Positions 17,832 through 51,023 of a stretch of DNA of 64,000 nucleotides are shown piece by piece. The DNA is taken from the NCBI GenBank assembly GCA_965200315.1, contig OZ241362.1, positions 5,056,001 to 5,120,000 on the forward strand, given 5' to 3'. Source of the stretch: Candidatus Latescibacterota bacterium (GTDB lineage: Bacteria; Latescibacterota; UBA2968; UBA8231). The translations under genes were made by a program, and so were the position numbers. The notes under the pieces were generated by a model. That model was not told where the DNA came from. It did no database searches and worked only from the letters and a program-made list of their open reading frames with translations. The stretch's first letter is position 1. The number at the start of each line of letters is the position of its first letter.

Positions 17832-20800
17832 TCACTCGGCCTTGAGGGCCGCGAGCAGGGGGCGGCGCAGGGCCCAGTGCGCCGCGACCCCACACGCCAA
17901 CAGGCCAGCAGCGAAGACCAAGCCGAGCGAGATGCCCAGCGAGGCCCAAGGCAAGGGGGCGGGGTCGAAGAGGCGGGGGGCCACAGCGATGAGGGCGGCG
18001 GCGCTGCCTATCCCTGCGCCCGCTAGCAGGAGGAATCCGTGCTCGTAGAGCAGCATGGCCCCGAGGCGGGCGCGGCCGAAGCCACAGGCACTCAAGGCCG
18101 CCAACTCGCCACTGCGCTCGAGGACGTTGCGCAGGATGAGAACTCCCAATCCCAAAGTTCCCAAGAGCAGCCCGAGCAAGCCCAGCGTCTGAAAGGTCGT
18201 TAGGTACGTGTTTTCGACGGCGCGGTAGCCGCGAAGGTGCTCGGCGCTCAAGGTGGCGTCGAGGCCGTAGGCTGCTAGCTCCCTTTCGAGCGCGGCCGCG
18301 ACAGCGGCTGGTTGCTCCGTTTCGACCAAGAAGTAGCCATAGCCTTCGCGTGCGGGGAAATGCGCGGCGAAGCGATCCTCGGCAATGAGCAACTCGCTCT
18401 GGAACAGGCTGCCGTCCAACAGCCCGACCAACCGCACGGCCAAGCCCTCGGCAATCGGGATGTCGTCGCCCAGACGCTTGTGCAAAATCCACTGCGCCGA
18501 ATTAAAATCGCCGATGGCTGGGATGACGCCCGGCCCCAAATCTCGCTGGAGCAATCGCCAGGGATTGGTGCGCTCGGCCGGCGTTAGGGGGAGGGTCTGC
18601 CGGAAAGGCAAACGACCGAGTTGGACGAACTCGGCCGGTGCGCCGAGGATGCGCGGGGTCTGGGGTATGTAGAGGTTGCGGCAGCTCACATCGTCGCCGG
18701 GCAAGACGCGGAAGGGGAAAAAGTGCGCGTCATCCAAGTCTGTTGCTAGTCCCAATTCAAAGCGGCCGTCCGCGCTGTTGAGGTCTTGGAGCAGGGGAAT
18801 TTCTGCCTCGGCGACGAGTGAGAAGCCGCCCGGCCCCGGATCGTCTGACCACTCGACCTGTCGGTGAGCTCCAGCGGCGACGATGACGAAGGTAGCGCAG
18901 GCGACGAGAGAGGTGCAGAGGGTGCTGCGGCTTGGTTTACGGCTGCTGTTGAGGAGGCCCAAGCCAAGGCTGGAACTGAGGCGGCTCACTGTCGGAGTGC
19001 GCAGCCATACTGCGAATAGGGCCAACAGCGCCAACAGGGCCGCTGCGCCGCTGCCTAAAAAAAGCGCGGCCGCCGTTGCTGCGTCGGCCATACCGGCGAG
19101 GATGCTTAAGGTGAGAGCTATAACCAGACCAAATGCGGCGAGGACGGAACTGCGACGGCGTGGGAGCTGCGGTGCGGTGTCGAGGGCACCGGCGAGCAAG
19201 GCGCGGACGGGCAGCCGATGGAAGCGCTGCACAGTGCGCCACAGTGCCAGCGAAACCAGCAGCAGGGTGGATAGATAGCCCACCCCTAGGCTCAACGAGC
19301 TAACGTGGAGGTGGAGGAAGGGGGTGCCGATAGCGTCCAACCACAAGGTGTGCAAGCCGACTAGCATCAGATAGGCGTAGAGCGGGGCACCGGCTAGGCC
19401 GAGTAGTGAGCCGAGCCCGGCTAGGGCAATGCCCTCGCCCAAGAAACGCCGGCCCACGGCGGTGAGCGGGTAGCCGGTGGCGAGCAGCAGCCCCGCTTCA
19501 CGCGCACGTTGTTCGAGGCCGAACTTGCACAGCAGAACCACCAGTAATGCAGCCGCGGCGATGAGGAAGAGGCTGAAGCCGATAAAGAGGCCACCGAAGT
19601 CCGTGGCTCCGGTTGATGCTAACAGAGCTTCTTGACGGACGGGGCGCAAGGAGAAGCCCGCCGCCGTCGGAGACAGGTGCGCTAGTAGGTCTTGATGCAG
19701 ACTCTCGTACTGGGCGGACGAGGACGGATAGAAGCGGATGGCGGTTAGGGCTCCGTGGCGGCTGCGCCAGAGGTGCTGACCGGTATGGGCTGCGACGAAG
19801 GCTTTGGGCGCGGCCCCATACTGATCCCAGTAGGCTTCGTCCCGCGGGCGAATTTGACCCAAGTCGATGGGGAAGGGCGCATCCCAAGCAGCCATATCGC
19901 CTTCTGCCTGCAACCCCGGATATTCGGGCGTCAGGGTCGGGTCAATGGCCAAGCCGCGCATCTGCACGATCCCTTGGAGGCGGAAGTGGGCCTGCTCGGT
20001 CCGTAATTCATGGCGCGGGCCGACGACGTAATAGGTCAGGGAGATAGAGTCACCGGGCGCGGCGGTTAGGTCTTGGGCCGTCCAAGCGTCGAGGTAGAGG
20101 GCGTCGGCGGCGAGGGGCGGTGCGGGCCGTCCGTCTGCGAGGTAGAGGCCGGTGGGATCGTCGAGGGCGGTAACGGTTGAATAGGGAACTTGGCGATCGT
20201 TGGCCAGAATGGCGTTGGCCAGATAAGTAGAGAAGGTCGCGGTTTTGAGCTGTAGGGCCGCGGCACTGGTCAAGGCGGCGCGGGTCGAGTCGTCGAGGAC
20301 GAAGCGGGTGCTGGTCAGCTCGATGTAGTTGGAGTGCAGCGCGAGGTCCAGCTTATAGTCGGCAAGGGTTAGGTGCTGGGCGAGAGCGTGTTGCAGGTCT
20401 TGGTGTTGACTGTTGGGCGCGGCGATGAGCAGGGTGTTGACGCGGTCCTGCTGGTCGAGGGTGCGCTGGAGGTCTTGGAGGTTGAGGTAGGCGTTGAGCG
20501 GCAGATGCTGGTGAGGTCGCAGGCCAAAGCGCCCCACCCCGCTGTCGGGCAAGACGCCGGTGAGCACCACGCGCAGGGTAGTGACGATATCGATAGTGGC
20601 GCGGCGGCCAAAGAGGGATTCTCGGTAGGTTGGGCTGGGACTCTCTAGGGAGAGCAGGACTGCGTCGCCTAGTTCAAGGCCGAGGGCGCGTTGCAGCGAG
20701 GCACTGACGGCGAGTGGGGGAAACGGCTGGCCGGGCGTTGGCTTGAGGGCGTCGCGCAAGGCTTCGCCGCTGTCGGGAAAGAGCGCGGTGAAGCGGGAGT

Positions 20801-21089
20801 CGATGCCTTGGATTTGTACGCCAGCGGCGAGCGCTTGGGTTGTGGCGTGCCGGGCGCTGCCGTTGAGGAGGATAGCCGGCGCGTGGCCTCCAAGCAGTTC
20901 GCTGCGGAAGAAGTGCGCGGCCACTAGCGAGTAGTCGATGCGACCTAGGCGCTCCAAAGCCAAGTCGCGCAGGCTGCCGCGCATGGAGTCGCCAACTAGG
21001 AGAGCGCCGGTCAGGGCGGTTGTGGCGACAGCAGTGCCCAGCAGCAGCCCTAGGTGAACCCGCCAGTAGTAGATCAGGCTTCGACGCAC
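17832..21089 (-). CDS. Large FtsX/MacB-type ABC transporter permease with duplicated domains
   Basis: 1085 aa; two FtsX-like ends (EQRAREAGLLLATG, ERSGELAALSACG); overlaps the ATPase gene. Confidence 0.85.
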   Translation of the reverse strand: MRRSLIYYWRVHLGLLLGTAVATTALTGALLVGDSMRGSLRDLALERLGRIDYSLVAAHFFRSELLGGHAPAILLNGSARHATTQALAAGVQIQGIDSRFTALFPDSGEALRDALKPTPGQPFPPLAVSASLQRALGLELGDAVLLSLESPSPTYRESLFGRRATIDIVTTLRVVLTGVLPDSGVGRFGLRPHQHLPLNAYLNLQDLQRTLDQQDRVNTLLIAAPNSQHQDLQHALAQHLTLADYKLDLALHSNYIELTSTRFVLDDSTRAALTSAAALQLKTATFSTYLANAILANDRQVPYSTVTALDDPTGLYLADGRPAPPLAADALYLDAWTAQDLTAAPGDSISLTYYVVGPRHELRTEQAHFRLQGIVQMRGLAIDPTLTPEYPGLQAEGDMAAWDAPFPIDLGQIRPRDEAYWDQYGAAPKAFVAAHTGQHLWRSRHGALTAIRFYPSSSAQYESLHQDLLAHLSPTAAGFSLRPVRQEALLASTGATDFGGLFIGFSLFLIAAAALLVVLLCKFGLEQRAREAGLLLATGYPLTAVGRRFLGEGIALAGLGSLLGLAGAPLYAYLMLVGLHTLWLDAIGTPFLHLHVSSLSLGVGYLSTLLLVSLALWRTVQRFHRLPVRALLAGALDTAPQLPRRRSSVLAAFGLVIALTLSILAGMADAATAAALFLGSGAAALLALLALFAVWLRTPTVSRLSSSLGLGLLNSSRKPSRSTLCTSLVACATFVIVAAGAHRQVEWSDDPGPGGFSLVAEAEIPLLQDLNSADGRFELGLATDLDDAHFFPFRVLPGDDVSCRNLYIPQTPRILGAPAEFVQLGRLPFRQTLPLTPAERTNPWRLLQRDLGPGVIPAIGDFNSAQWILHKRLGDDIPIAEGLAVRLVGLLDGSLFQSELLIAEDRFAAHFPAREGYGYFLVETEQPAAVAAALERELAAYGLDATLSAEHLRGYRAVENTYLTTFQTLGLLGLLLGTLGLGVLILRNVLERSGELAALSACGFGRARLGAMLLYEHGFLLLAGAGIGSAAALIAVAPRLFDPAPLPWASLGISLGLVFAAGLLACGVAAHWALRRPLLAALKAE

Positions 21090-21751
21090 GTCCCCTCGTG
21101 TAGCTGTAGGCGGCGGTCGCAGCGCGCCGCTAGCTCAAGGTCGTGGGTTGCAATGACGAGGGCGGCTTGCTCGGCGCGATGGAGCGCGAAGAGCAAGCCG
21201 GCGACGGTGGTGGCCGTCTGGCGGTCGAGGCTGCCGGTCGGCTCGTCGCAGAGCAAGAGACCGGGCTGGTTGATCAAGGCACGCGCCACAGCCACACGCT
21301 GGCACTCGCCGCCGGATAGCTCGGCGGGGCGGTGGTGTAGGCGCTCTGCTAGGCCGACGGCGGTCAAGAGGTCGCGGGCGCGTTCGCGTCGGTCGGGTTG
21401 GGGAAAGGCGAGGGTGGGGATTAGGGCGTTTTCGAGGGCCGAGTACTGAGGCAGCAGGTGGTGATTTTGGAAGACGAAGCCGATGTGCTGGTTGCGGAAG
21501 CGGGCGAGTTGCGGTTCGGGGAGGGCTAGTGGATTCTGGCCGCTGATGGCGATTTGGCCCGAGCTCGGCGGTTCGAGGGTGCCGAGCAGGTGCAGTAAGG
21601 TGCTCTTGCCCGAGCCGGACGGACCGATAAGCGCCAAGGACTGGCCCACTTCGACGCACAGTGAGACGCCGCGCAGCACGGCGACGGTCTGGTCGCCGAG
21701 GGCGAAGTGTTTGCAGACGGCGGCTGCGGAGAGGGCCGGGGCTGCGTTCAT
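21074..21751 (-). CDS. ABC transporter ATP-binding protein (LolD/MacB-like)
   Basis: GPSGSGKST, LSGGE, LLCDEPTGSLD and ATHD; start at ATG 21751 overlaps the upstream stop. Confidence 0.92.
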   Translation of the reverse strand: MNAAPALSAAAVCKHFALGDQTVAVLRGVSLCVEVGQSLALIGPSGSGKSTLLHLLGTLEPPSSGQIAISGQNPLALPEPQLARFRNQHIGFVFQNHHLLPQYSALENALIPTLAFPQPDRRERARDLLTAVGLAERLHHRPAELSGGECQRVAVARALINQPGLLLCDEPTGSLDRQTATTVAGLLFALHRAEQAALVIATHDLELAARCDRRLQLHEGTCVEA

Positions 21752-22165: not shown

Positions 22166-22636
22166 TCAGGTGCCGGGGCGGAAGAATGTGACTAGGCAGC
22201 CGCCCATAGCAGCCAAGACGATGCCGAGGACAAAGGGCCAGCGCACGGCGGCCCAGCCGCCCGCGGGTGGATGCACGAGCACGGCGACGACCGCGTTGAC
22301 GATGGGAGCACCGGCAAAGACGATGGACATGACCACGGCCGGCGTCCCCTTGGCCCCGAAGGCGAGGAGGACGCCCAACGCGCCGATGGCCCCGGCGATG
22401 CCAGCGGCCGTGGACCAGAACATGCCCTTGGCCGGGTAGAGCCAGCTCGCGCCATTGTAGGCTAGGACGATCAGCGAGCCAAAGACGGCGGTGAGTAGAT
22501 AGGCCAAGCCGACGAAGAGAAAGGCTTTGTAGCGGCCATTTACCGGGTCGGCCATGGCGATCTGGCCGGTGTGCAGCAAGACTCCGTAGAGGCCCCAGCT
22601 AGCCACGGTGAGGAGGGCGAAGACGAGCCAAGTCAT
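22166..22636 (-). CDS. Small EamA/DMT-like membrane protein
   Basis: About five hydrophobic helices; GAAAGGA SD before ATG 22636 (MTWLVFALL). Confidence 0.7.
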   Translation of the reverse strand: MTWLVFALLTVASWGLYGVLLHTGQIAMADPVNGRYKAFLFVGLAYLLTAVFGSLIVLAYNGASWLYPAKGMFWSTAAGIAGAIGALGVLLAFGAKGTPAVVMSIVFAGAPIVNAVVAVLVHPPAGGWAAVRWPFVLGIVLAAMGGCLVTFFRPGT

Positions 22637-22868
22637 GGAGATAATCCTTTCGCTGAGACGAGAAGAGAGAAGGTAGAGCCGTGAGAAAAGAGAGGGGCTG
22701 CAAACGTGCGTTGGTGCGTCTCTCGCCTCAAAGTCGTGATTGCTCTCAAGCACCTCTGCACTTGCAAACGTGCGGTTGGGCAGGGGGCTTTCACTCCTCA
22801 CTCCTCTTCAGACCAACCAAGTGCGTACCATCAGTAATGTCGGCAGAGGACTTGTCGCTGTCGAGAGA

Positions 22869-23888
22869 TCAATCGATCGCGATGAGGTTCTCAAAATGTA
22901 CCCCACAATCGCAGAGCGCTACGGGAATGTTGAATCGCTTCTCCAGTTCGTCGATGAGGTGTCGGACTGGTGAGGTCAACGCGCTGCGGTGGCGTGCGCC
23001 GGCGACCTCGGGGTCGAGGTGATCGCAGAAGGTCAGGGCCAATTGGGTGGGACCGTTGAGTAGGACGGCTGTTTCCAAATGGCCCCAAGAGATACCCGCG
23101 GCTTTGCGCCTCCGTCGCCCGGTCGTCACGCCGTATTCGGCGATGCCGCGGCGGTCTTCCTCGGCCGGTGCCAGTTGTAGCGGTAGGGGCCCCGTGCCGA
23201 CGCGGCTAGGCAGTGCTTTGACCACCAAGCAGACTTCTTCGATATGACGCCAGTTGAGTCCGACGTCATCGGCAAAGGCGGTGGTGGTACAGTTGTCTGA
23301 GGTGCAGTCGGGGTAGTCATCGCTCAGGGCTAGCGACAGGTGAGTGCCTTGGCTGCCCTCGACGACGATGGTTTCGCCGCGCAGGCAGCTCTCGTTGAGC
23401 TCGCGGGCCACGTCGGCGGTGTAATCGGCGAGGCGAGGCTCGTCGCGGGCTTGGCGGGCTTGGCGCAAGGCGAATTCGGCGCGGGCCACGCCGCTGCCGC
23501 TGCCGGTGGTGCCGTGTTCCTGCAGAAAGCTGTCGTCCGCTTCGCGTTGGCGGTACTCGGGCAGGATCAGCGGGCAGCGGTAATCGACGCGGGTCCGCTC
23601 GCGCAGCCCATAGCTTGGGTCTAGCTGGTCGAGTTCGGCGCAGAACAGCTCGGGATCGACGGCGACGCCGCTGCCGATGCGCAGTTGCGAGTCGGGATGG
23701 AGAAAGCCGCAGGGTAGCTGCCGAGTGCGGATTGCGCGGCCGTCGGCAAAGAGGATGCTGTGCCCGGCGTTGGTGCCGATCCCAGCGCGGACGCTGTAGG
23801 CGGCTTGGTGTTTTTGTGCGAGGAAGGCGGCGACCTTGCCTTTACCCGAATCGCCCCAGAAGGCGTCGACGACGATGATGGCGCTCAT
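22869..23888 (-). CDS. purA: Adenylosuccinate synthetase, short archaeal-type form (339 aa)
   Basis: WGDSGKGK, TNAGH, GTTGSG, EGSQG and EYGVTTGRRRR motifs; AAGGAGG SD. Confidence 0.8.
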   Translation of the reverse strand: MSAIIVVDAFWGDSGKGKVAAFLAQKHQAAYSVRAGIGTNAGHSILFADGRAIRTRQLPCGFLHPDSQLRIGSGVAVDPELFCAELDQLDPSYGLRERTRVDYRCPLILPEYRQREADDSFLQEHGTTGSGSGVARAEFALRQARQARDEPRLADYTADVARELNESCLRGETIVVEGSQGTHLSLALSDDYPDCTSDNCTTTAFADDVGLNWRHIEEVCLVVKALPSRVGTGPLPLQLAPAEEDRRGIAEYGVTTGRRRRKAAGISWGHLETAVLLNGPTQLALTFCDHLDPEVAGARHRSALTSPVRHLIDELEKRFNIPVALCDCGVHFENLIAID

Positions 23889-23931
23889 AGCGCACCTCCT
23901 TTAAAGAGTGAATTGGTTGACGCTCCTGACG

Positions 23932-23963
23932 ATAAGCGAAATTGTAGCATAAGTGAAATTTAT
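23932..23963. promoter_or_regulatory. Putative LysR-type operator in the divergent purA/lysR promoter
   Basis: ATAAGTGAAATTTAT (23949-23963) is a T-N11-A box with ATAA/TTAT dyad; a related ATAAGCGAAATT lies 17 bp away at 23932. Confidence 0.55.
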
Positions 23964-24006
23964 ATATCTTATTTTTAGAATAATTGATATAAATGAAGGA
24001 TTCCGA

Positions 24007-24900
24007 ATGGACCTCTACCAATTGCGCAGTTTCTACGAAATCGTCCGCGAGCAGAGCTTTACGCGGGCGGCCGACAAGCTCTTTCTGACGCAGCCGGCCA
24101 TCAGCCTCCAGCTCAAGGCACTGGAGAACGAACTGGACGAGATGCTACTCGAGCGCAATCGGCGGCAGCTCCGGCTGACGCCGGCCGGTGAGCTCCTCTT
24201 TGCTCATGCGAAGGCGGTTCTCGCCCAGCAGGAGAAAGTGTGCTCCGATATTGCGGCGCTCAGGCAGGTCTTGCGTGGGCGGCTGGCAATCGGGACTAGC
24301 GATACCAACTGCACCTATGTTTTGCCCAGCGTGCTCGCCGAGTTCCGCGCCCGCTACCCGGCGGTCGAGTTGGATGTCCGCAATCGAATGTCGCCGGAGG
24401 TGAGCAACCTAGTGCTCAACGACGAAGTGGCGTTCGGGTTGGCGACCTTGCCGGTCAAGCACCGCGATTTGGTCAGCGAGTCGCTTTTTGAACGGCGGGA
24501 TGTGCTTATTTGCCCCCCGGACCACGCGCTGGGCAAAAGGCGCAGGATAGGGCTCAAACAGCTTGCCGAATATCCGTTCCTAGTCTTGGAACGCGGCAGC
24601 ACGAGCCGGCAGTTGATCGACGCGGTTTTCCAACGGCAGGGCTTGGCGTTGCAGGTCGAAATGACGCTCGGCGGGGTCGAGATTATCAAGCGCTACGTGG
24701 AGATAGGGTTGGGTATTGCGCTGGTGCCGGAGGTGGCGGTGGAAGCAGAAGTCGCCGCCGGGAAAGTACGCGCCATACAGGTCAGTGGATTGGCCAAACG
24801 CCAAATAGGTCTCATTGAGCACCGGCAGCGACGGCGTTCACCGGCGACGGAGGCTTTCTTGGGGCTTTTGCGCGAATTTGTTGCGGCTAGGAAGATTTAA
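24007..24900 (+). CDS. LysR-family transcriptional regulator
   Basis: SFTRAADKLFLTQPAISLQLKALE HTH; LERGSTSR; start at ATG 24007. Confidence 0.93.
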   Translation: MDLYQLRSFYEIVREQSFTRAADKLFLTQPAISLQLKALENELDEMLLERNRRQLRLTPAGELLFAHAKAVLAQQEKVCSDIAALRQVLRGRLAIGTSDTNCTYVLPSVLAEFRARYPAVELDVRNRMSPEVSNLVLNDEVAFGLATLPVKHRDLVSESLFERRDVLICPPDHALGKRRRIGLKQLAEYPFLVLERGSTSRQLIDAVFQRQGLALQVEMTLGGVEIIKRYVEIGLGIALVPEVAVEAEVAAGKVRAIQVSGLAKRQIGLIEHRQRRRSPATEAFLGLLREFVAARKI

Positions 24901-24910
24901 TCCGCAGATG
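24869..24910 (+). repeat. Direct repeat A, copy 1 (42 bp, covers the lysR 3' end)
   Basis: TGCGCGAATTTGTTGCGGCTAGGAAGATTTAATCCGCAGATG matches 26255-26296 with one mismatch. Confidence 0.9.
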
Positions 24911-24946
24911 AACGCAGATGGACGCAGAGTGCTTGCTGGGATGTCG

Positions 24947-24969
24947 TTCCCGCGCTCCGCAAGCGGGAA
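24947..24969. repeat. Short palindrome (REP-like hairpin or terminator)
   Basis: TTCCCGC-N9-GCGGGAA between convergent genes. Confidence 0.45.
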
Positions 24970-25016
24970 TCCAGTTTGGGTACAGTCTCTAAGTGCCATT
25001 TCTGTTGTTGTCGACT

Positions 25017-26207
25017 TCAAATAGCAAACCACGGCTGCACCGCCACTTTGTTGCGCCGGTACGCACGGTCGCCGCCGTAGATCAGCGAAGCATTCGCAAG
25101 GTCCTGTCCGGCGGTGCGGCTCCACCATGTAAGTGTGGTGAACGCATCGGCACTGACCGTTTGGCCAGACTTGATCTCAATCGGGTAGAGTGCCGATCCC
25201 TGTTCCACCAGCAGATCGACCTCGTGGCCGGTGCGGTCGCGCCAAAAATACAGCGGAGGCTTCTGGCGGTGGTGGTGGAAGGCTTTGGCCGCTTCGGCGA
25301 CTTGGTAATTTTCAAAAAGGGGGCCGCGCAATGGATGGGTGGGCAGCACCCGGGGGTCTTTTATGCCCAGCAAATAACAGGCAAGGCCGGTGTCGTAGAA
25401 GTACAGCTTGGGACTTTTGATCATCCGCTTGTTGAAGTTGCGGTAATGCGGCGGCAGCAGAAAGACGACAAAGCTGGTTTTCAAAACGGATATCCAGCGA
25501 CGTGCCGTATCTACGGCGATGCCGCAATCGCTGGCTAGTGCCGCGCAGTTGAGTACCTGCCCGACCCGACCGGCGCACAAAGCCAAAAATCGCTCAAAGG
25601 CATCCATGTTGCCGATATTGACTAGTGAACGCACGTCGCGTTCGAGATAGGTTTGCACGTAGTCGGGGAGCCATATTGCGGGCGGGATGCGCTGGTCGTG
25701 AATTCGCGGATAGAAGCCGGTGTAGAGGGTCTGCCATAGCTGGAGATGGGTCTTGCGACTGGCCAATAACGTCGCGGGGGTTTCGGGCACCGGCTGGACT
25801 TGGCCTTCGAGTTCGGCACGCGAAAGCGGCAACAGGTGCAAAACGGCGCAACGGCCCGCCAAGGTCTGCACAATGCGATCCATGAGCAGGAAATTCTGCG
25901 AACCGGTCAGCACAAATCGGCCCGTGCTACCGTCTGCGTCAACTCTGCTCTGGATATAGGAAAACAACTCGGGCACCCGCTGGGCTTCGTCCAAAATGAC
26001 CGGGCCGTCGAGTTGGTCGAGGAATCCTCGGGGATCCTCTAAGGCAAAGAGGCGTTGGTCGGGGTCTTCCAAGGAGTAGTAGCTATGCTGGGGGAAGGTC
26101 GCTCTGGCTAAGGTCGTCTTGCCGGACTGGCGCGGGCCGGTGAGGGTAAGCACCGGGTACAAGCGGGCATCGCGCAAAAGATACTGTTGTAGGGTTCGCC
26201 TAATCAT
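25017..26207 (-). CDS. AAA_14 ATPase with a DUF4143 (restriction-nuclease-like) C-terminus
   Basis: GPRQSGKT, ILDEAQ, LTGS, KSPKLYFYDTG, EVDLL...IEIK. Confidence 0.88.
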   Translation of the reverse strand: MIRRTLQQYLLRDARLYPVLTLTGPRQSGKTTLARATFPQHSYYSLEDPDQRLFALEDPRGFLDQLDGPVILDEAQRVPELFSYIQSRVDADGSTGRFVLTGSQNFLLMDRIVQTLAGRCAVLHLLPLSRAELEGQVQPVPETPATLLASRKTHLQLWQTLYTGFYPRIHDQRIPPAIWLPDYVQTYLERDVRSLVNIGNMDAFERFLALCAGRVGQVLNCAALASDCGIAVDTARRWISVLKTSFVVFLLPPHYRNFNKRMIKSPKLYFYDTGLACYLLGIKDPRVLPTHPLRGPLFENYQVAEAAKAFHHHRQKPPLYFWRDRTGHEVDLLVEQGSALYPIEIKSGQTVSADAFTTLTWWSRTAGQDLANASLIYGGDRAYRRNKVAVQPWFAI

Positions 26208-26213
26208 CTGGCG

Positions 26214-26242
26214 AATCTACGATTGAATCGTAAATCTGTCAA
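26214..26242 (-). promoter_or_regulatory. Sigma70-type promoter, probably leaderless, for the AAA_14 gene
   Basis: TTGACA (26242-26237), 17-nt spacer, TAGATT (26219-26214), then 6 nt to ATG 26207. Confidence 0.65.
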
Positions 26243-43646: not shown

Positions 43647-45037
43647 CCGGCCCGGCGCTGCAAGGCGCGCTGCTGGTAGAGGAAGTCGAAGAGATTGCCC
43701 TCGTGCGGCTGGTCCCAGGCTATTTGGTGGGTGGGGATCGGGCCGAGGTTGAGGCGTTCAATGTGGGGCGCGGCGAGCAGTTGGCGCGTTAGGTGCTCGT
43801 CCGCGGTGAGGGCGGTGGCTACCAGCGTCGGGCCGATTTGCGCGACTACTTCTTCTGGCGGGATTTCGACGACCGCGGCGAAGGGGAAGAGGTATTCGGT
43901 GTTGGCGAGTGGGTGTTGCCAGTCGGGGGCGTGGATTAAGGTTGGGTTGAGGAAGGTGCAGCCGCCGGTCTCGGCGATGCGTTCGCCTTGGTCTCTGGCC
44001 GTGTCTGTCGCGGCACCGAGTTGGGAGTCGATTAGGGATGAGACCTGGTGTGCTACTGAGGGGTTGGAGAAGGCGGCGATTTGGGCTTGGGGGTCGTCGA
44101 GGGGGCGGGCTTGGATTTGGCTCAGGCGTTCGCCGAGGGCGGCGGCGATGGCACCACCGTGGGCGGGCACCCAGATGCCAGAAGCATTGAGGCAGGAGCG
44201 GCCCCCATTGGAAGCGATTGAGGCGACCATGAGGTCGAGGTAGTGCTCCCACTGGTCGATTTTGTCTGCGCCGATGATGATCTTGCTGCGCCCTGGTCCG
44301 TGTAGTTGGACGCGAGGGTCGTCGCGCCAAGGGGCGACGGTAGGACCGCCGCCGAATAGTAGCGAGCGATCGCAGCGGAGCAGGATTTCGGTGCTGCCGC
44401 CGTGGTCGGTCGGGTAGTAGCTCAGGGCTTGGGGTGGACAGCCGGCTGCGATCAGGGATTGGGCGATGCGGTAGGGCGTCCACGGCTCTTCGCGGCCTGG
44501 CTTGAGCACTAGCGGGATTTTGAGTGGGATGGCTGGCAGCCACAGCGCGTGGACGCCGGGTGAGTTGCTGGGCAGGATGCAGCCGAGGGCTTGGGCGTGG
44601 GACGCGAAGTGGAGCGGACTTGGGCCGTCGTCGAGAATGGTCAAGTCCAAACCTCGGGTCAGGCCGCTGAGCACGGCGGGCATTTCGCGGCCGACGCGGT
44701 GGATTTTGTCCATGTTGGCGCGGGCAAGCGACTGCGGCAGGCCGGTGGTGGCCGAGACTTGCGCGACGTAGTCGTCCGGGGTTTGGCTGTCGTCGCCTAA
44801 AGGCAGTTCGGCGCGCAAGAAGAGGTCCGCGGCCCGTTGGCAGATGGCGACCAACTCGGCGACGGTGAGGGCTTGCAGTGCTTGGCGGTTGCGCTCTTGG
44901 GCAGCCAAGTCGCGGGCGATCAGGCCGCGGTTGGCTTGGCTGACTTGCGCGAGAGGTTGGCCGGTGGCGATGTGGGCGACAGCGAGGCGGTCGAGGCTGG
45001 TGTAGGGCTGGCCGGCGCGGAGGATGGGTAGGTGCAT
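43643..45037 (-). CDS. Aldehyde dehydrogenase-fold protein, LuxC-like acyl-thioester reductase
   Basis: PSNSPG, LKPG, FGG and catalytic GRSC; HGPGRSK in place of ELGGK. Confidence 0.75.
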   Translation of the reverse strand: MHLPILRAGQPYTSLDRLAVAHIATGQPLAQVSQANRGLIARDLAAQERNRQALQALTVAELVAICQRAADLFLRAELPLGDDSQTPDDYVAQVSATTGLPQSLARANMDKIHRVGREMPAVLSGLTRGLDLTILDDGPSPLHFASHAQALGCILPSNSPGVHALWLPAIPLKIPLVLKPGREEPWTPYRIAQSLIAAGCPPQALSYYPTDHGGSTEILLRCDRSLLFGGGPTVAPWRDDPRVQLHGPGRSKIIIGADKIDQWEHYLDLMVASIASNGGRSCLNASGIWVPAHGGAIAAALGERLSQIQARPLDDPQAQIAAFSNPSVAHQVSSLIDSQLGAATDTARDQGERIAETGGCTFLNPTLIHAPDWQHPLANTEYLFPFAAVVEIPPEEVVAQIGPTLVATALTADEHLTRQLLAAPHIERLNLGPIPTHQIAWDQPHEGNLFDFLYQQRALQRRAG

Positions 45038-45183
45038 GAGTTTGGATTTGGGGTTAGAGTTGGAGTGAGTCTTTGCGATCTGCAATCTATAATCTGCAAG
45101 AGTTTGGGGTAGCGGAAAAGGTGTCGTTTTCAGATCGAATTATACTGGGAACGGGGCGACGCTCTGCCAGAGGGTTCGCATTT

Positions 45184-45570
45184 ATGTTTACTATGCGTTT
45201 CAGGTTAGTCGTCTTAGCTGCCATCTCGCGAATCAATTCCTAGACCGCGCGGCTGCACAAGACGATTCTGACAGGATTCATCAACGCGAAGAAACTGTTG
45301 TTACTGCGGAGCGGATGGAAAACTCGCTTTTTGCATCTACTGCTGAGGTGTCGGTGCGTACCGGTGCTGAACTGGAGTTTCTGCCACTAAAAAACCTCGC
45401 CGCTGCACTGGAGACGTTGCCGGGAATTTCGTTTTTGCACCGCGATGGGCTGGGGCGCGACCCGTTGGCAACACTGCGCGGTTTTTACGGTGGTGGCGCA
45501 GCAGAGTATCGGCTGGTTATGATCGATGGAAGGCCGATCAATGCGCTCGAGAAAGCTACAGTACAACGGG
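45184..45570 (+). pseudogene. TonB-dependent receptor remnant (signal peptide and plug only)
   Basis: Signal-like MFTMRFRLVVLAA is out of frame with EETVVTAER...LPGI...LRGF...VMIDGRPIN; no barrel follows. Confidence 0.65.
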
Positions 45571-45580
45571 ATATCCCAAC

Positions 45581-45856
45581 TCATCGGGAGGATGCGTCTC
45601 GTTTGCGCGATTCGCCGATGACGGCCAAGTGCTCTTGCCAATCCGGTTCTCGCTTTGGGCCTTCCAATGCGTCGCAGGCGCTGAAGAACTCTTCAAGGTC
45701 GGTTGGGAATTCAAAGGGGTGGGATTGCTGCTGTTCTTCGAGCTGTCGGCGGGCGGCGGCCCTGAGCCACGCGCTCAAGGTCATGCCCTCGCTCCGCGCC
45801 TGATGAACGAAGCGAGCACGGTCTTCGTCGGGGATCACTAACTGAACTCTGGCCAC
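45581..45856 (-). CDS. Ribbon-helix-helix antitoxin-like protein with no toxin partner
   Basis: RVQLVIPDED...ARSEGMTLSAWLR and an acidic tail; AAGGAG upstream. Confidence 0.65.
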   Translation of the reverse strand: MARVQLVIPDEDRARFVHQARSEGMTLSAWLRAAARRQLEEQQQSHPFEFPTDLEEFFSACDALEGPKREPDWQEHLAVIGESRKRDASSR

Positions 45857-45859
45857 TTT

Positions 45860-46370
45860 TACCTACTCCTTTCTTGTAACCTTCTGCTGCTTTATTCTGT
45901 CCAATGGCTTCAGGTGAAATTCGGCCGCTCTCCACAAGAAGAGTGAAGTGAGCCAGAACGTCTAAAGCCTGCCAGAGAATTTTAGTAAACACATCACGCA
46001 AACTCTGACTCTCAATGCCAAAATCCTTAGCAATTTTTCGATAGTTACTGCCATCCCAACATCTTGGCTTGCGACAGCCTTTCTTGATCCAATTCAATAC
46101 TCATAACTATCTCTCTTCAAGAAGAATTTCTAACCCCAGTGATATATCCAATGTTTCTTATCACTTACACCCGGTCAGGAATGGCTACAGTGGCAGGTGG
46201 GATTGGCTATTTACCTGCTCAGCTACTGGTGTCGTGTTGTTGTAGTGGTATAGTTTGAAATTTAAGAATGGTGCAGACAAAAGCCCGATATCGACGAGTA
46301 TTAGAGCTTTCACAAAAACTCTTGATAATCCATTGCGCATCCCTCTCGATATGACTTCATCATAGAGTAC
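45860..46370. other. Low-GC degenerate foreign DNA
   Basis: Visibly AT-richer than its flanks; only fragmentary ORFs. Confidence 0.5.
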
Positions 46371-46375
46371 ACGCC

Positions 46376-47446
46376 TCAGTACACCCCCACCACCACAGAC
46401 TCCTGCAACTCAGTCAGCAAGCGCAAATTTTTAACCCCATCCCAAGGATACACGTCGATCGGCGCGGTGCGTTCGGCCTCGTCGCGTTCGAGGAAGCGGG
46501 GCATGAAAAACTCCTTGGTCAGGGTCGTGAGCATGACTTGGCCGGTCTCGCCGTAGCCGACCTTGCGCGCGGGGGCTTGGGGATCAACTAGTTCGATGAC
46601 GGCGCGCGGCTGCGGCGGGTAGTAAGTGATGGCGTACTCGTCGGCCGGGTCAAAGGGCTTGGGGCAGGCCAGGCCCATCAAGGTGTTGCCGTAGGTGGGC
46701 ACAAAGGCGAGGCCGGGCACCAACTCCTCGCGGGCGAAGCGGTGGAACTGGGCGTTCATTTCCGTGCCGCCGCAGAAGATGCCCTTAATGCCGAGCTTGA
46801 GCAGGGAGACTTTTTCGCAGAGCGCTTCGAGGAGCCGGGGGGTGGTGAAGACGCACTGTACGTTGTCGTGGGCCTTGAGAATTTTGAGTGCCTGATCGAC
46901 GACATGGGCTTTGTAGTCTTCCAACTCGCGCATCTGGCCGGCGCGGATGAGTTCGTTGACCCAGCGCGGGTCGAGATCCACCATAAAGCACAAGCCACCG
47001 CGTAGCTGGGCGAGGTACTCGATGGCGAGGCGCAAGCGGCGCGGCCCCGAAGGCCCCAGCATCAGCCAGTCGGCCCCTTTGGGAAAACCCTCTTCGGACA
47101 AACTTTCGCTGTAGAGCGCGTAGTCGGTGTGGAAGTCGCGGATGTTGATGCGGTATTTGGGCAAGCCGGTCGAGCCGCCGGTCTCGAAGACGTAGATCGG
47201 CTCGTCGGCGTAGGCTTTGGGCACCCACTGGCGCACCGGGCCGCCGCGCAGCCACTCGTCCTCAAAGTGGCCGAGCAGGGCCAAGTCGGCGTAGGAGCGG
47301 ATTTGCTCGCGTGGGTCGAAGTCGAGCCGCTGTGCGTAGGAAAGCCAAAACGGGCAGCCAGTCTCGGGGCTGAAGTGCCACTCGACGATGGCGCGGACGT
47401 GAGCGTCGAGGTCGTCGCGGGCAGCGGCGATTTTGTCCGCGCTCAT
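46376..47446 (-). CDS. LuxE/PaaK-like adenylate-forming enzyme (356 aa)
   Basis: ETGGSTGLPK P-loop, CGGT, PTYGNT and ERD; ATG 47446 overlaps the upstream stop. The longer track ORF is a shadow extension. Confidence 0.7.
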   Translation of the reverse strand: MSADKIAAARDDLDAHVRAIVEWHFSPETGCPFWLSYAQRLDFDPREQIRSYADLALLGHFEDEWLRGGPVRQWVPKAYADEPIYVFETGGSTGLPKYRINIRDFHTDYALYSESLSEEGFPKGADWLMLGPSGPRRLRLAIEYLAQLRGGLCFMVDLDPRWVNELIRAGQMRELEDYKAHVVDQALKILKAHDNVQCVFTTPRLLEALCEKVSLLKLGIKGIFCGGTEMNAQFHRFAREELVPGLAFVPTYGNTLMGLACPKPFDPADEYAITYYPPQPRAVIELVDPQAPARKVGYGETGQVMLTTLTKEFFMPRFLERDEAERTAPIDVYPWDGVKNLRLLTELQESVVVGVY

Positions 47447-48861
47447 TGGCTTTCTTCCGCGATGGCGAAGAGGGTGTTGCGCGAGGCGATGTAGAGGACG
47501 CCGTCGCGGGCGACCGGAGTGGTGTACACGGCGCTGCCCAGATTGGTTTCGTGGAGTAATTCGAGCGTTGTGCCGGCCTTGAGTATATCGACGTCGCCGT
47601 CCTCGTCGCCGATATAGACCTTGCCGTCGGCGACAAAGGGCGAGCCCCAGATCGCGGCGAACGTGTCGTGGGTCCAGTGGTGGGTGCCGGTTTGGGCGTC
47701 GAGGCAATAGACGAAGCCGCTCAGGTCGGCGGCGTAGAGCAGGCCATCGGCGATGGCGACTGTGGAGATGGTGCGGTTGTAGTTTTTGTCGCCGAAGTGC
47801 CAGATTGCGCCCGTCGCGGTGATGTCGCCGCTGCCGCTGGCGTCGATGGCCCACAGGTGGCCCTCGCCTTCGCCGTGCTCGGGGTCTTGGCCAACGCCGA
47901 TATAGACTATGCCGTCGTGGAAGACGGGCGTGGAGACGAGGTTGTTGCGGGTGCCGCGGCCACCTAATTCCCAGACCGAACCCTTGGGGTTGCAGTCGAA
48001 TTTCCACAGTAGTGCGCCGGTGTCGGGCGCGAAGGCATAGACCCAGCCGTCGCCGCCGGGGAAAATTACCTGCTTGCGGCCACCGGCCTCGCCGTAGGCG
48101 GGGTTGGACCACTGGCCGTGCAGAATCTGGTCACCGGGCAGGGCGCTGTCCCAGAGGAGGCTGCCGGTCTGCATGTCGAGGGCGATGAAGCTGGGGGCAA
48201 AGGGGGCCGGGATGTGGACGTGGCCCTCGTCCACGCCGTTGCTGGTTAGGGCGAAGAGCCGGCCATCGACGCCCAGCGGCGAGCTGGTGGCGAGGTTGTG
48301 GGGGAAGACGTCCAGCTCGGCGATCATGTCGAATTTCCAGATGAGATCCGCGTTGGTGGGCGCGGTGGCGGCTTCGTCGGCGATGGGGCCGTCGTTCTCG
48401 CCATCGCGGAAGCCTTCGGTGTCGAGACAGACGACTTCGGCGCGGTTGGAGACATAGTAGAGGCGGTCGCCTTCGATATAAGGGGTGGAACAGACGCCCT
48501 GTTGCGGCCAGTCGTTGACGCGGCCAGCCGGCAGCTTGGGATGGGCGATTTGCCACAGGAAAGCACCGTCCTCTAAGGAAAAGGCCATCACCACGCCGCG
48601 GTCGCCCTTGTGGTTGGGGTCGCGCTCGGCTTGGTTGTTGGTGCCGACGAAAATTTTGTCGCCGGCGATCAGGGGGCCGGCGTAAGTCTGCGAGCCGAGC
48701 GTGGCGCGCCACTTGACGTTTGTGCCGCTGGCGGTGTCCCAAGTGGTGGGTAGGTTTTGCTCGTCCGAGACTTGGTTGCGCCCGGGCGAGCCGCCCCACA
48801 TGGCGGTTTGGGCACTGACGGAGGCGGTTAGGGCGAGGATGAGGCAAATAGCGATAGTCAT
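47443..48861 (-). CDS. Secreted PQQ-like beta-propeller protein with acidic inserts
   Basis: Signal peptide; repeated blades; inserts DTEGFRDGENDGP, NGVDEGH and GQDPEHGEG. Confidence 0.85.
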   Translation of the reverse strand: MTIAICLILALTASVSAQTAMWGGSPGRNQVSDEQNLPTTWDTASGTNVKWRATLGSQTYAGPLIAGDKIFVGTNNQAERDPNHKGDRGVVMAFSLEDGAFLWQIAHPKLPAGRVNDWPQQGVCSTPYIEGDRLYYVSNRAEVVCLDTEGFRDGENDGPIADEAATAPTNADLIWKFDMIAELDVFPHNLATSSPLGVDGRLFALTSNGVDEGHVHIPAPFAPSFIALDMQTGSLLWDSALPGDQILHGQWSNPAYGEAGGRKQVIFPGGDGWVYAFAPDTGALLWKFDCNPKGSVWELGGRGTRNNLVSTPVFHDGIVYIGVGQDPEHGEGEGHLWAIDASGSGDITATGAIWHFGDKNYNRTISTVAIADGLLYAADLSGFVYCLDAQTGTHHWTHDTFAAIWGSPFVADGKVYIGDEDGDVDILKAGTTLELLHETNLGSAVYTTPVARDGVLYIASRNTLFAIAEESQ

Positions 48862-51023
48862 CACCAAACTTTCAGGTTGTCGTAGTAGATTTCAGCGGGA
48901 GAATAGCCGTAGAGTCCGGGGCTGCCGCTGCGGTTGGGCAGGGGATCGACCGCTTGGATGCTCCACGCGGCTGGCTCTGGCTCGTCGCGGGGCCAGACCT
49001 TGCCGCGGATGTAGGCCATATCGCCTTTGAGTTCCACCTGGATCTTCACGGTGTACCAGACGCCGGTTTCCCAAGCAAAGGGCACGGTTTTGGCCATCCG
49101 CAGCTCGGCGGCCCAAGTGCGAATCTGCAACTGCTGATGGTAGCCCATCAGGTCAAGGGTGTAGCGATTGGCGATCAGGCCCATGTCGGGGACGGCGCGG
49201 CGCTTCTTGGTGCCGAGCAGGTCGGCTTGGATGGTGTAGCCGGTCATGGTGGGCGCACCGAGGTAGGTGTTGGCGCGGTGCAGGCCGCGGGCGGCGGGTG
49301 GCTTGACCAACACCTTGTTGCCTTCCATTTCGCGCACCTTGAATTTGGTGCCTGTGCCGATCCAAGCTGGCGAGGCGTCAACGGTGAAACCCTCGAAGTC
49401 TTCGCTGTAGGTTGGCGGCGGCAGCACGGCGATGCGCGCCTCGGCAGTCAATTCGCCGGCGCTGGCGACGATTTTGCCACCGCTCGGTGCGTCTGCGAGG
49501 ACAAGCGTATTGCCGTCGAGTTGGCCAACTGGACCGGCGAGTGTCCATTCGGCTGAGGCCGGGCCAATTAGGCGGCCGTCTGCGTCGAAGGTTCGGGCGC
49601 GGAACAGCACGCGGGCCCCGGGCTGAGCTACGACTTCGGCGGGAATGATTTGCAGGTGCGCCGGTGTTGCGCTTGGGGCAGCTTGCGCGCGTGGGTAGCT
49701 CGCTGCGGTCGCGGCGACCTCGAACCTCGCCGCTGGATCGCCGAGGCAGTAAACGCCCGCTTCGGTGGCAAGGTAGATGTGGCCGTAGGCTACGGCAGGC
49801 GAGCCGAACAGTTCGGCCGGGCGTCCGTCGGGCATGGCAATCTCGGCGAGGTCGAGGGTCTCGGCGGCGGTGCTGTCAGGGGCGACGATGACAAAGCGGC
49901 CGTTGACCTCTGGCGCGTAGAGCCGGCCGTCGGCCAGCACAGGCGATCCCTTGCCGACGGTGCCGATGTTGTGGACCCAGTGGACTTGGCCGGTCTCGGC
50001 GTCGAGTGCGTGGATGTTGGCCGAGTTGTCGATGAGGTACAAGCGGCCGTCGTGGACGACCGGGCTACTGTAACCGGCGAAGACGCCATCGTAGCGCCAG
50101 ACCTCGTGGGTGTTCGCAACGTCGCCTTGGCCCGTGGCGTCGATGCACACGACGCGGCCGAGGGCGGTGTTGTCGAGGTTTTCCTCGCTGTGGGCTGCGT
50201 ACACCTTGTCGCCCGCGACGACGACCGAAGAGTTGATGCCGCGCCGACTCAGCTTGAAGCCCCACACCGTCTCGCCGGTGCGGATTTTCATGGCATAGAT
50301 GGCGCCGTCGGCGTTGCCGCCGATGAGCAGGCGGACGCCGTTGATGGTGGCGACGACGGGGACTGAGTACGTGGTGTCGAGCGGCCGGCCCCCCGGGGTG
50401 GCGATCCAGACGACTGCGCCGCTGCGCTTGTCAAAGGCGAAGTAGCGATGGCGGCCCGGCGTGTGCTGGCCCCAATTGGAGCTGAGATAGCTGATGATGA
50501 CGAGGTCTTCATCGACGACGGGCGTGTGGACGCGGCCGCCGTAGCCGGAGATGCGCCCGAATTCCTCGGTCAGCGAGCGCGACCATATTACCTTGCCGTC
50601 GCGGTCAAAGCAAAAGAACAGTCCGCTGACCGTGTGGGCATAGACATAGCCGGTCTCTGGGTCGCCGGCGAGGCTGGCCCAGCCGACGCGATTGAAGGGG
50701 ATGGTGGTGTGGAAGATGTTGTAGGCGTGTTCCCAGAGCAGGGTGCCGTCTTGGGCGTCAAAGGCGGCCACAACGCCCTCTTCCGCGATGTCCTCGCCGC
50801 GGCGACCGATGACGAATACTCGTCCGTCGAGGACGATGGGGGTCGAGCGGCTGGTGAATTCGGCGTGCCAGACCGGCGACCAGGATGCGACGAGGCCGGT
50901 CTCTTCGGAGACGCCGTTTTGCGCTGGGCCGCGCCAAGAGGGCCAGTCGGCTGGGTAGGCGCTGGAAACGGCGAACAGGAGGCCAAGAAAGGCATGGGGA
51001 AGTTGCAGGCGGAGATTGGGCAC
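48861..51023 (-). CDS. Secreted PQQ-like beta-propeller with C-terminal Ig-like and beta-sandwich (ConA-like) domains; first gene of the cluster
   Basis: AAGGA SD before GTG 51023; DWPSWRGP; C-terminal YSEDFE...WYTVK...GKVW...YYDNLKV. Confidence 0.8.
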   Translation of the reverse strand: MPNLRLQLPHAFLGLLFAVSSAYPADWPSWRGPAQNGVSEETGLVASWSPVWHAEFTSRSTPIVLDGRVFVIGRRGEDIAEEGVVAAFDAQDGTLLWEHAYNIFHTTIPFNRVGWASLAGDPETGYVYAHTVSGLFFCFDRDGKVIWSRSLTEEFGRISGYGGRVHTPVVDEDLVIISYLSSNWGQHTPGRHRYFAFDKRSGAVVWIATPGGRPLDTTYSVPVVATINGVRLLIGGNADGAIYAMKIRTGETVWGFKLSRRGINSSVVVAGDKVYAAHSEENLDNTALGRVVCIDATGQGDVANTHEVWRYDGVFAGYSSPVVHDGRLYLIDNSANIHALDAETGQVHWVHNIGTVGKGSPVLADGRLYAPEVNGRFVIVAPDSTAAETLDLAEIAMPDGRPAELFGSPAVAYGHIYLATEAGVYCLGDPAARFEVAATAASYPRAQAAPSATPAHLQIIPAEVVAQPGARVLFRARTFDADGRLIGPASAEWTLAGPVGQLDGNTLVLADAPSGGKIVASAGELTAEARIAVLPPPTYSEDFEGFTVDASPAWIGTGTKFKVREMEGNKVLVKPPAARGLHRANTYLGAPTMTGYTIQADLLGTKKRRAVPDMGLIANRYTLDLMGYHQQLQIRTWAAELRMAKTVPFAWETGVWYTVKIQVELKGDMAYIRGKVWPRDEPEPAAWSIQAVDPLPNRSGSPGLYGYSPAEIYYDNLKVW

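Follow-up and report, generated by a model that had tools for sequence, protein, structure and literature searches.

Two-protein aryl-carboxylate reductases are known from two antibiotic clusters, that of the phenazine D-alanylgriseoluteic acid in Pantoea agglomerans (EhpF/EhpG) and that of grixazone in Streptomyces griseus (GriC/GriD). The two genes are adjacent and translationally coupled; EhpF is an ANL enzyme of about 360 amino acids (aa) without the C-terminal subdomain, and EhpG a protein of about 470 aa from the aldehyde dehydrogenase (ALDH) superfamily with a conserved Cys. EhpF/EhpG have been proposed to reduce phenazine-1,6-dicarboxylate. According to the available part of its description, GriC adenylates 3-amino-4-hydroxybenzoate (3,4-AHBA) and GriD reduces it to the aldehyde (PMC10179220). 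We describe here a gene cluster containing a coupled pair of this type, in a 64,000-nt window (G000:C1:5056001-5120000) of the single-contig, 5.36-Mb genome of a Candidatus Latescibacterota bacterium. The cluster, at 17832-51023 on the minus strand, has 20 conserved genes. Around its reductase pair lie exported propellers, a TonB receptor, a family 4 glycosyltransferase (GT4) and a MacB-type ATP-binding cassette (ABC) system, none of which the antibiotic clusters have; conversely, the window has no phenazine or 3,4-AHBA genes. The reading that we favour, and to which we give an even chance, is that of a conserved, horizontally shared operon that serves to produce and handle, in the cell envelope, a small aromatic metabolite.

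A second likeness is to the 'Halo_AMP' clusters of sponge microbiomes. As described in the accessible part of the preprint, these combine a flavin halogenase with an AMP-binding enzyme, come from metagenome-assembled genomes (MAGs) of Acidobacteriota, Latescibacterota and Poribacteria, and frequently contain pyrroloquinoline quinone (PQQ)-like domains, TonB transporters and radical S-adenosylmethionine (SAM), glycosyltransferase, thioesterase and toxin-antitoxin genes (Loureiro et al., bioRxiv 10.64898/2026.08.03.742642). The window is likened to them by description, its identity with any one listed family being unconfirmed; the same text centres on a P450-containing family, CC A, which the window does not match, and in the part available proposes no role for the PQQ-like genes (10.64898/2026.08.03.742642). 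An earlier, sequence-only reading of the window (hereafter the first-pass annotation) had warned that rule-based cluster finders could miss such a locus. This was borne out: a custom halogenase plus AMP-binding rule was needed in the sponge study, as far as its available text goes (10.64898/2026.08.03.742642), and standard biosynthetic-cluster rules do not recognise the present cluster. Literature searches found no characterised pathway with this gene set, in agreement with the same annotation. New here are three insertions, two of them with long flanking repeats, synteny evidence that ties the distant GT4-to-permease tail to the unit and, at the level of prediction, a reductase complex, a motif set in one propeller and a lectin-like domain in another.

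Gene order and conservation of the cluster

Domains were called by Pfam and NCBIfam scans of the window open reading frames (ORFs). The 20 genes are given below in their order of reading, the propellers being numbered prop1 to prop6 and the two reductase genes named aden356 and aldh480.

48861-51023, minus: prop1, exported propeller (Pfam PQQ_2, E 6e-43)
47443-48867, minus: prop2, exported propeller (8-bladed AlphaFold2 model)
46376-47446, minus: aden356, EhpF/GriC-type ANL adenylating enzyme, 356 aa (Protein Data Bank (PDB) match to EhpF)
43643-45085, minus: aldh480, EhpG/GriD-type ALDH-superfamily reductase (Pfam Aldedh, E 7e-14); likely start 45037, giving 464 aa
42540-43646, minus: iron-containing alcohol dehydrogenase (Fe-ADH; Pfam Fe-ADH, E 8e-46, plus ADH_Fe_C)
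40948-42066, minus: prop3, exported propeller (Pfam Beta-prop_ACSF4, PF13570)
39578-40975, minus: HemN-like radical SAM protein, class C type, likely start 40951 (Radical_SAM plus HemN_C)
38317-39564, minus: prop4, exported propeller
37079-38320, minus: prop5, exported propeller
35838-37082, minus: prop6, exported propeller
33706-35841, minus: TonB-dependent receptor (plug and barrel domains)
32432-33709, minus: PaaK-like aryl-acetate/aryl-acid coenzyme A (CoA) ligase (PDB phenylacetate-CoA ligases)
31179-32435, minus: putative flavin-dependent halogenase, phenol/pyrrole, 'variant B' type (Pfam Trp_halogenase, E 3e-30)
29066-29290, minus: DUF3311 small subunit
27615-29069, minus: sodium:solute symporter (SSS)
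26328-27611, minus: GT4 glycosyltransferase with an N-terminal CGSC motif (Glycos_transf_1, E 4e-30)
22166-22636, minus: conserved membrane protein, 156 aa
21748-22164, minus: 4HBT (YbgC/FadM-type) acyl-CoA thioesterase
21074-21751, minus: ABC ATPase (ABC_tran)
17832-21089, minus: permease of 1085 aa with two FtsX domains

The ORF list and the domain scans confirm the cluster and its gene order as first read. All 11 junctions listed in the first-pass annotation (at 48861, 47443, 43643, 40948, 38317, 37079, 35838, 33706, 32432, 29066 and 21748) are stop/start overlaps, of 1-4 nt if internal ATG starts are used. Matches to polyketide synthase, nonribosomal peptide synthetase (NRPS), terpene or ribosomally synthesized peptide families were, as had been claimed, nil in Pfam scans of the window proteins. 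The proposed 33-kb extent is real, because the same genes sit together without insertions in other genomes, but three later insertions with at least five unrelated genes had been overlooked (see below). A seventh exported propeller, prop0 (16473-17825, plus strand; PQQ_2, E 8e-40), likewise overlooked, is convergent with the permease; its relatives (27-37% identity) were found in 5 of the 80 loci introduced below and its membership in the cluster is uncertain.

A homologue search with the adenylating enzyme in genome contigs, one genome per species, gave at least 601 matching stretches, at least 592 of which encode a relative; the best 80 of these at least 592 were taken with 10 kb on either side, often ended by a contig edge (loci carry L-numbers below). 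In these 80 the adenylating enzyme is 64-95% identical to that of the window, the closest named relatives being Candidatus Latescibacterota MAGs at 95%. In a word-index search with aden356, all 8000 candidates scored had E<=0.001; among the 120 matches listed, identities were 74-94% and names generic at best. The gene is single copy in the host genome. Its neighbours recur far beyond chance, the same genes flanking it in other phyla: aldh480 lies beside it in 50 of the 80 loci, prop2 is present in 48, prop1 in 47 (on the upstream side), Fe-ADH in 24, prop4 in 22, prop3 and GT4 in 19 each, the radical SAM gene in 18, the TonB receptor in 13 and the FtsX permease in 9. All or nearly all of the counted neighbours share the strand of the adenylating gene, and at least one propeller occurs in 64 loci. 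Co-occurrence of the enzymes in other genomes had been set as a test of the cluster; they were found together and in the same order in Latescibacterota, Poribacteria, Acidobacteriota, Planctomycetota and Calditrichota, among others.

The distal part of the cluster, from PaaK and halogenase through (DUF3311-SSS), GT4, membrane protein and thioesterase to ABC ATPase and FtsX permease, is unbroken in four other genomes, namely that of Acidobacteria bacterium Mor1, that of another Latescibacterota member and two additional MAGs. Full-length orthologues of the permease (44-50% identical) form the end of the cluster in 4 of 5 genomes checked; in the fifth, from Poribacteria, the permease is about 956 kb away. 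Orthologues of DUF3311-SSS (64-73% identical) lie within the cluster in L022, L064, L084 and L085, those of the 156-aa membrane protein (67-71% identical) were found in L030, L083, L084 and L085, and those of the thioesterase in L083, L084 and L086. Soil Acidobacteriota typically carry a short form made of adenylase, ALDH-like protein, GT4, ABC ATPase, FtsX permease and a divergent propeller. Genes outside the cluster set vary by lineage: Vut_1 genes flank 12 acidobacterial loci, PhyH genes 7 loci, DUF6785/6784 genes 6 and HPPD-like plus DAO genes 1. Conserved precursor-supply genes were sought in the flanks of the other loci, and only such lineage-specific genes were met. The PhyH, sulfotransferase and HPPD-like genes would be variable tailoring functions of other lineages, which fits a natural-product cluster.

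The phyletic pattern is patchy. An adenylating-gene match is carried by 83 of 151 sampled genomes of the phylum, the window's own included; the matches are confined to three families (38/63, 27/30 and 17/19 genomes), and none was obtained in the 38 genomes sampled from the remaining 11 families. Within the genus of the host, the gene was found in each of the 21 other genomes sampled. Frames of 833-835 aa in three genomes of the phylum were considered as possible fusions of the adenylating gene; the two that were inspected are out-of-frame extensions of neighbouring genes, and the fusion was rejected. A tree of the adenylating enzyme (81 rows, quick method) separates a short-form clade, with Acidobacteriota and Planctomycetota, from a long-form clade, and places Latescibacterota at three or more positions. 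Transfer of the cluster between phyla is likely on this sequence evidence, and is claimed only as likely because the taxonomic labels of MAGs are unreliable. Two sets of labels may be mentioned here: the 'Gemmatimonadota' contigs L003, L005 and L009 share 84-95% identity with those of Latescibacterota, and Bacillota labels (Clostridia or Heliobacteriaceae; L042-L044 and L054) are borne by contigs that nest among Acidobacteriota in the tree.

Reductase pair, tailoring enzymes and transporters

The aden356 protein matches the PDB entries of EhpF (3l2k/3hgu) over residues 7-356 with an E-value of 3e-45; it consists of the ANL N-terminal domain only and is 32% identical to Pantoea EhpF over 350 aa. 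The aldh480 protein is 27% identical to Pantoea EhpG over the full length (E 3e-39), and its Cys282, in GGRSC.NAS, is invariant in 17 sequences. On this homology the two belong to the EhpF/EhpG (GriC/GriD) family and are putative aryl-carboxylate reductases; some Streptomyces homologues are labelled 'arylcarboxylate reductase' by PGAP. Compared with EhpF/GriC, the family of the window shows much stronger conservation, with 64-95% identity in the 80 loci, and a much wider distribution. The first-pass annotation had named the two proteins LuxE-like and LuxC-like, correctly as to the expected chemistry, i.e. ATP-dependent acyl activation followed by NAD(P)H-dependent reduction to the aldehyde on a Cys of the second protein, but not as to the family: Pfam LuxE (PF04443) and LuxC (PF05893) were unmatched at E<=0.001 or 0.01, the matches being to PF00501 and PF00171, and the full-length homology is to EhpF and EhpG. 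Unlike the LuxE/LuxC bioluminescence operons, the window contains neither luciferase nor LuxD.

Structure prediction supports binding of aden356 and aldh480 to each other. The predicted complex gave an ipSAE of 0.79 (0.77-0.80 in three runs) against 0.00 for the best of 3 controls, with at least 87% contact agreement between runs and a partner pLDDT (predicted local distance difference test) of at least 90. Of 157 solved complexes 116 attained this mark, as did 2 of 215 mismatched pairs; these counts are rough, since own alignments were used.

The flavoprotein at 31179-32435 has PDB matches to 8zop, ChlB4, 5buk, CndH and PltA (E 1e-65 to 1e-52). Its motifs include GGGPAG at 8-13 and WFWYIP at 214, the latter corresponding to the WxWxIP motif that separates halogenases from flavin monooxygenases; its K69 aligns with Lys 76 of CndH, presumably the catalytic Lys. 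All three flavin-halogenase hallmarks are therefore present, and we regard it as a putative halogenase; it does not reach equivalog-level identity (CmlS model NF033113: 205.8 bits for a cut-off of 900). The radical SAM protein has CRRRCKFC at position 85, matches both PF04055 and PF06969, and is without the fourth Cys of HemN. It scored about 190-197 bits with each of the HemN, ChuW/HutW and STM4012 models, below their cut-offs; in the PDB, HemN came first (E 2e-32) and the methyltransferase NocN second (E 5e-27). The host genome has a separate HemW-like paralogue elsewhere. For Fe-ADH every NCBIfam equivalog was below cut-off. The PaaK-like ligase matched the PDB phenylacetate-CoA ligases with E 1e-56, the NCBIfam PaaK models staying below cut-off, and GT4, a member of the minimal acidobacterial core, had zero NCBIfam equivalogs above cut-off.

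Among the transport genes, the TonB receptor (PF07715 and PF00593) exceeded the cut-off of the siderophore-receptor subfamily model TIGR01783 (252.2 versus 223.5 bits). The best model for the ABC ATPase was LolD, at 243.8 bits for an equivalog cut-off of 307.75, DevA-type exporters being also among the most similar proteins. In a hydropathy scan the permease showed about 10 hydrophobic segments and external loops of about 470 and 225 aa. Judged by these sequence features the ABC system is of the MacB/Lol type (type VII), an assignment at the superfamily level only. The 156-aa membrane protein had zero Pfam matches, EamA included, at E<=5; an Atlas feature search led to 'putative EamA/DMT' clusters (0.97), a lead only, so that it is possibly a half-size EamA/DMT (drug/metabolite transporter) protein.

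Exported propellers and the possible pathways

Each of the six propellers starts with a hydrophobic stretch resembling a signal peptide, after which comes a motif of the (D)WP.WRG type, as judged by eye. Also by eye, no lipobox Cys is visible in their N-termini, which end in A-x-A-type sites. They measure 372-474 aa, save prop1, which has 720 aa and extra domains. Whereas prop4, prop5 and prop6 are 49-69% identical among themselves, prop1-3 share no more than 22-30% identity with that trio or with each other, and most other loci hold one or two copies of the prop4 family. It follows from this paralogy that four propeller families are fixed in the cluster, the six genes of the window resulting from recent local duplication. 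The 'six PQQ-like propellers' of the first-pass annotation are thus six and exported, but they are PQQ_2/BamB-like proteins from four fixed families and not quinoprotein dehydrogenases: with the PQQ-dehydrogenase models TIGR03075, TIGR03074 and TIGR04528 (expected size about 550-800 aa) the best propeller reached 71.7 bits for cut-offs of 480-830. All six were also below cut-off with the BamB models TIGR03300/NF008351, the best being prop3 (196.8 versus 285.2 bits), which exceeds the cut-off of PF13570 (220.6 versus 133 bits). The cytochrome c motif CxxCH is absent from the cluster proteins.

The most conserved propeller is prop2 (55-70% identity across phyla). An alignment of 20 prop2 sequences revealed the invariant motifs GTNN, DWPxQGxCS, FPHNLA, NGVDExH, HGxW, LGGxGTxN, VGQDPEHGE, WGS and EDG. 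Its AlphaFold2 model is 8-bladed (pLDDT 85) and is closest to YxaL (Z 37.2, root-mean-square deviation 2.2 A, 335 residues aligned), BamB (Z 34-35; template-modelling (TM) score of 0.6-0.8 in Foldseek) and Rv3035 (Z 32.3), lower-ranked matches being tetrathionate hydrolase and PQQ alcohol dehydrogenases. The fold is shared with BamB, YxaL and Rv3035 but sequence identity is only 14-25%, and the prop2 family has long invariant polar motifs (Asp, Glu, His, Asn), as read within the prop2 alignment. We take BamB to be a non-enzymatic envelope scaffold. Rv3035 is described, in the available part of its report, as a periplasmic partner supporting an arabinofuranosyltransferase (PMC13041763). As for prop1, it is an 8-bladed PQQ_2-type propeller whose 270 C-terminal residues are modelled (pLDDT 93) as an Ig-like domain and a ConA-like lectin/glucanase-fold domain; the best fold matches of this C-terminal part are beta-sandwiches of the lectin/CBM type, among them the galactocerebrosidase lectin domain, CBM66 and GH16, with modest TM scores of 0.4-0.5.

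By family assignment the cluster does hold the functions first ascribed to it, i.e. acid activation, reduction, halogenation, glycosylation and transport. Most likely, an aromatic acid would be turned into a halogenated, sugar-tagged alcohol and passed to the exported propellers. An aryl or arylacetic acid, entering through the TonB receptor and the symporter or made by the cell, would be converted to a CoA thioester, which would be halogenated and probably C-methylated before the thioesterase frees the modified acid. The reductase pair would then adenylate the carboxylate and reduce it, through a Cys thioester, to an aldehyde that Fe-ADH would convert to the alcohol; GT4 would glycosylate the alcohol and the ABC system, perhaps together with the small DMT-like protein, would export the product from the cytoplasm. 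In the periplasm the propellers would bind this product or process it further; a lectin-like domain is predicted in prop1, and the invariant polar motifs of prop2 are enzyme-like. The TonB receptor may re-import the product, siderophore fashion. Pyoverdine-type siderophore pathways follow a similar logic: the precursor is cytoplasmic, an ABC system exports it, several proteins mature it in the periplasm, and a MacB-type exporter and a TonB receptor for re-uptake complete the set; compared with them, the window has no NRPS, and its periplasmic proteins are propellers instead of Pvd enzymes.

Several observations weigh against this scheme. The order of the steps is guesswork, and we infer substrate and product from the gene families. 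The closest solved relatives of the halogenase presumably include enzymes acting on carrier-protein-bound substrates, and Pfam scans found no carrier protein in the cluster. Two importers beside an exporter are unusual for simple biosynthesis. The solved proteins of the prop2 fold with a known role, BamB and Rv3035, are scaffolds and not enzymes, as far as the available text on the latter goes; together with the lack of a cytochrome c motif, this speaks mildly against a redox-cofactor role. Finally, the short acidobacterial form is without halogenase, radical SAM protein, Fe-ADH and TonB receptor within 10 kb on either side, so the aromatic-tailoring steps are accessory and the core chemistry could differ.

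This short form keeps alive another explanation, rather unlikely in our opinion, in which the conserved core (carboxylate reductase, GT4, Lol/MacB-type ABC system with double-FtsX permease and small DMT-like protein) would produce an envelope glycoconjugate or glycolipid, either a glycosylated alcohol or a lipid or surface component derived from the aldehyde, and extract it from the inner membrane; the BamB-fold propellers would then be periplasmic scaffolds or chaperones that help to deliver or assemble it, and the aromatic-tailoring genes lineage-specific extras. The minimal set of Acidobacteriota is reduced to adenylase, ALDH-like protein, GT4, ABC ATPase, FtsX permease and propeller, the ATPase has its greatest similarity to LolD and to exporters of the DevA type, prop1 may bear a lectin-like domain, and the small membrane protein resembles half-size DMT proteins (a lead only). 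The nearest folds to prop2 are those of BamB, YxaL and Rv3035, and Rv3035 supports a periplasm-facing glycosyltransferase according to the available text (PMC13041763). However, the characterised EhpF/GriC-type reductases use, in the accounts at hand, aryl acids; the Pfam/NCBIfam scans found no fatty-acid or polyprenyl enzymes in the cluster; the patchy spread within the phylum is odd for a core envelope component; and the invariant Asp/Glu/His motifs of prop2 look more like an active site than like a scaffold surface. Alternatively, the cluster could serve uptake and conversion (salvage or detoxification), an exogenous aromatic acid entering by way of the TonB receptor, the propellers and SSS/DUF3311, to be activated by PaaK and reduced to the alcohol while the ABC system disposes of a by-product. 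A TonB receptor, a symporter and a PaaK-like ligase, here interleaved with propellers, are reminiscent of the transport and ligase genes with which phenylacetate catabolic clusters begin their pathway. We nevertheless find this improbable: the flavoprotein carries the full halogenase motif set including WxWxIP, GT4 and the MacB-type exporter belong to anabolism or export, many versions of the cluster lack SSS, PaaK and the TonB receptor, and ring-cleavage and beta-oxidation genes are absent from it by Pfam scan.

The first-pass annotation had proposed, by analogy with PQQ and quinoproteins, that a new small-molecule cofactor is exported and installed in the propellers. Co-inheritance of four propeller families with small-molecule enzymes across phyla agrees with this idea, the invariant polar motifs of prop2 are compatible with a ligand or metal pocket, and PqqC was unmatched in the host genome (94.7% complete), which is weak evidence as 14 control genomes were silent too. 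We consider it very improbable, since the propellers are BamB-sized and far below every PQQ-dehydrogenase cut-off, the cluster offers neither a c-type haem motif nor any other electron acceptor, cofactor pathways do not typically include a glycosyltransferase, a halogenase or a TonB receptor, and the distribution is patchy and accessory. Returning to the envelope-handled aromatic metabolite, a stronger version of it would make the four co-inherited propeller families, instead of scaffolds, a new set of enzymes of the periplasm or of clients with a bound ligand, by which an exported halogenated aryl glycoside is completed, polymerised or used. This version is unlikely; if true, it would mean that a kind of periplasmic chemistry has gone unrecognised, perhaps a new metallophore or envelope-cofactor system, common to Acidobacteriota, Planctomycetota, Latescibacterota, Poribacteria and others.

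The carriers include dominant soil Acidobacteriota as well as sponge symbionts. Once the product is identified, a widespread two-protein carboxylate reductase family would have a function; the finding would also give a first role to several exported BamB-like propeller families and possibly link a bacterial pathway to orphan halogenated sponge compounds. Compact versions of about 20 kb, such as that of Acidobacteria bacterium Mor1, make the question directly testable.

Insertions and surroundings of the cluster

Three blocks interrupt the cluster. The genes and segments concerned are:

45086-46375, no strand: 1.3-kb insertion between the reductase genes, mostly non-coding with small ORFs only
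29499-31100, minus: AAA-ATPase_like/PDDEXK_9 gene, in the insertion 29272-31213
22802-26327: insertion block outside the cluster proper (DUF4143/AAA_14, LysR and PurA-like genes)
25017-26207, minus: DUF4143/AAA_14 ATPase
23953-24900, plus: LysR gene
22869-23888, minus: short PurA-like gene, 339 aa, adjoining LysR

The AAA-ATPase_like/PDDEXK_9 gene is bracketed by perfect 50-nt direct repeats (29272-29321 and 31164-31213), which are copies of the junction between the halogenase stop and the DUF3311 start; in L084, L085 and L064, DUF3311-SSS follows directly after the halogenase or TonB receptor gene, with no insertion. The DUF4143/AAA_14 gene lies between 57-nt repeats that are 91% identical (24869-24925 and 26255-26311), and in L083 the small membrane protein comes directly after GT4 without the insertion block. 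The PurA-like gene of that block scored 298 bits with a PRK04293-type adenylosuccinate synthetase model (cut-off 368) and also resembles PurZ. The 1.3-kb segment had zero Pfam matches; in L008 and L009, where the adenylating gene is 84% identical, about 10 nt separate the reductase genes from each other. Because these junctions are tight in other genomes, all three blocks are later insertions, and every coding sequence of the cluster was left intact. From their sequence, the AAA-ATPase_like/PDDEXK_9 and DUF4143/AAA_14 insertions look like mobile elements of a single-gene type with unusually long target duplications.

Unrelated genes, 4-7.5 kb in all, occupy the adenylating/ALDH-like junction in L002, L004, L005 and L010. 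This junction is a recurrent insertion site in sponge-symbiont genomes (L002 11051-17130, L004 11051-15470, L010 11063-18550), with a cargo of TonB receptor, AbiEi, HAD, type I restriction-modification specificity subunit or AAA_35-NERD protein; DUF4143 genes lie between the two reductase genes in L021, L023, L027 and L056.

The window is contained in DNA and RNA-library runs labelled sponge metagenome. In two metatranscriptomic libraries (X6 and X7), which share their study with a probable source run, contigs span all of 31201-51200 at 97% likeness or more, the non-coding insertion included; since RNA libraries can hold DNA and assembled contigs are no measure of transcription, we do not conclude from these contigs that the region is transcribed.

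Outside the cluster, a DUF362 gene (51079-52362) is divergent from prop1; it has the same position, at 86-95% identity, in 7 closely related loci but not in other lineages. On the permease side lies a DUF6785/DUF6784 membrane protein gene (12640-14655), a type of gene found just upstream of the cluster in six Latescibacterota/Poribacteria loci (e.g. L021 3398-5386). Defence-type genes flank the cluster, with an MmeI-like restriction-modification enzyme (9713-12559) and an N6_N4 methylase (15545-16294) on one side and a PLD-SNF2 helicase (52322-55714) and an Eco57I-type methylase (55721-59527) on the other. Onward on the latter side come AAA_15/AAA_21 ATPases together with DUF3226 (59524-62608) and, from 62779 to the window end, an ApeA-HEPN protein, and the G+C fraction drops to 0.39-0.45 past 58 kb of the window.

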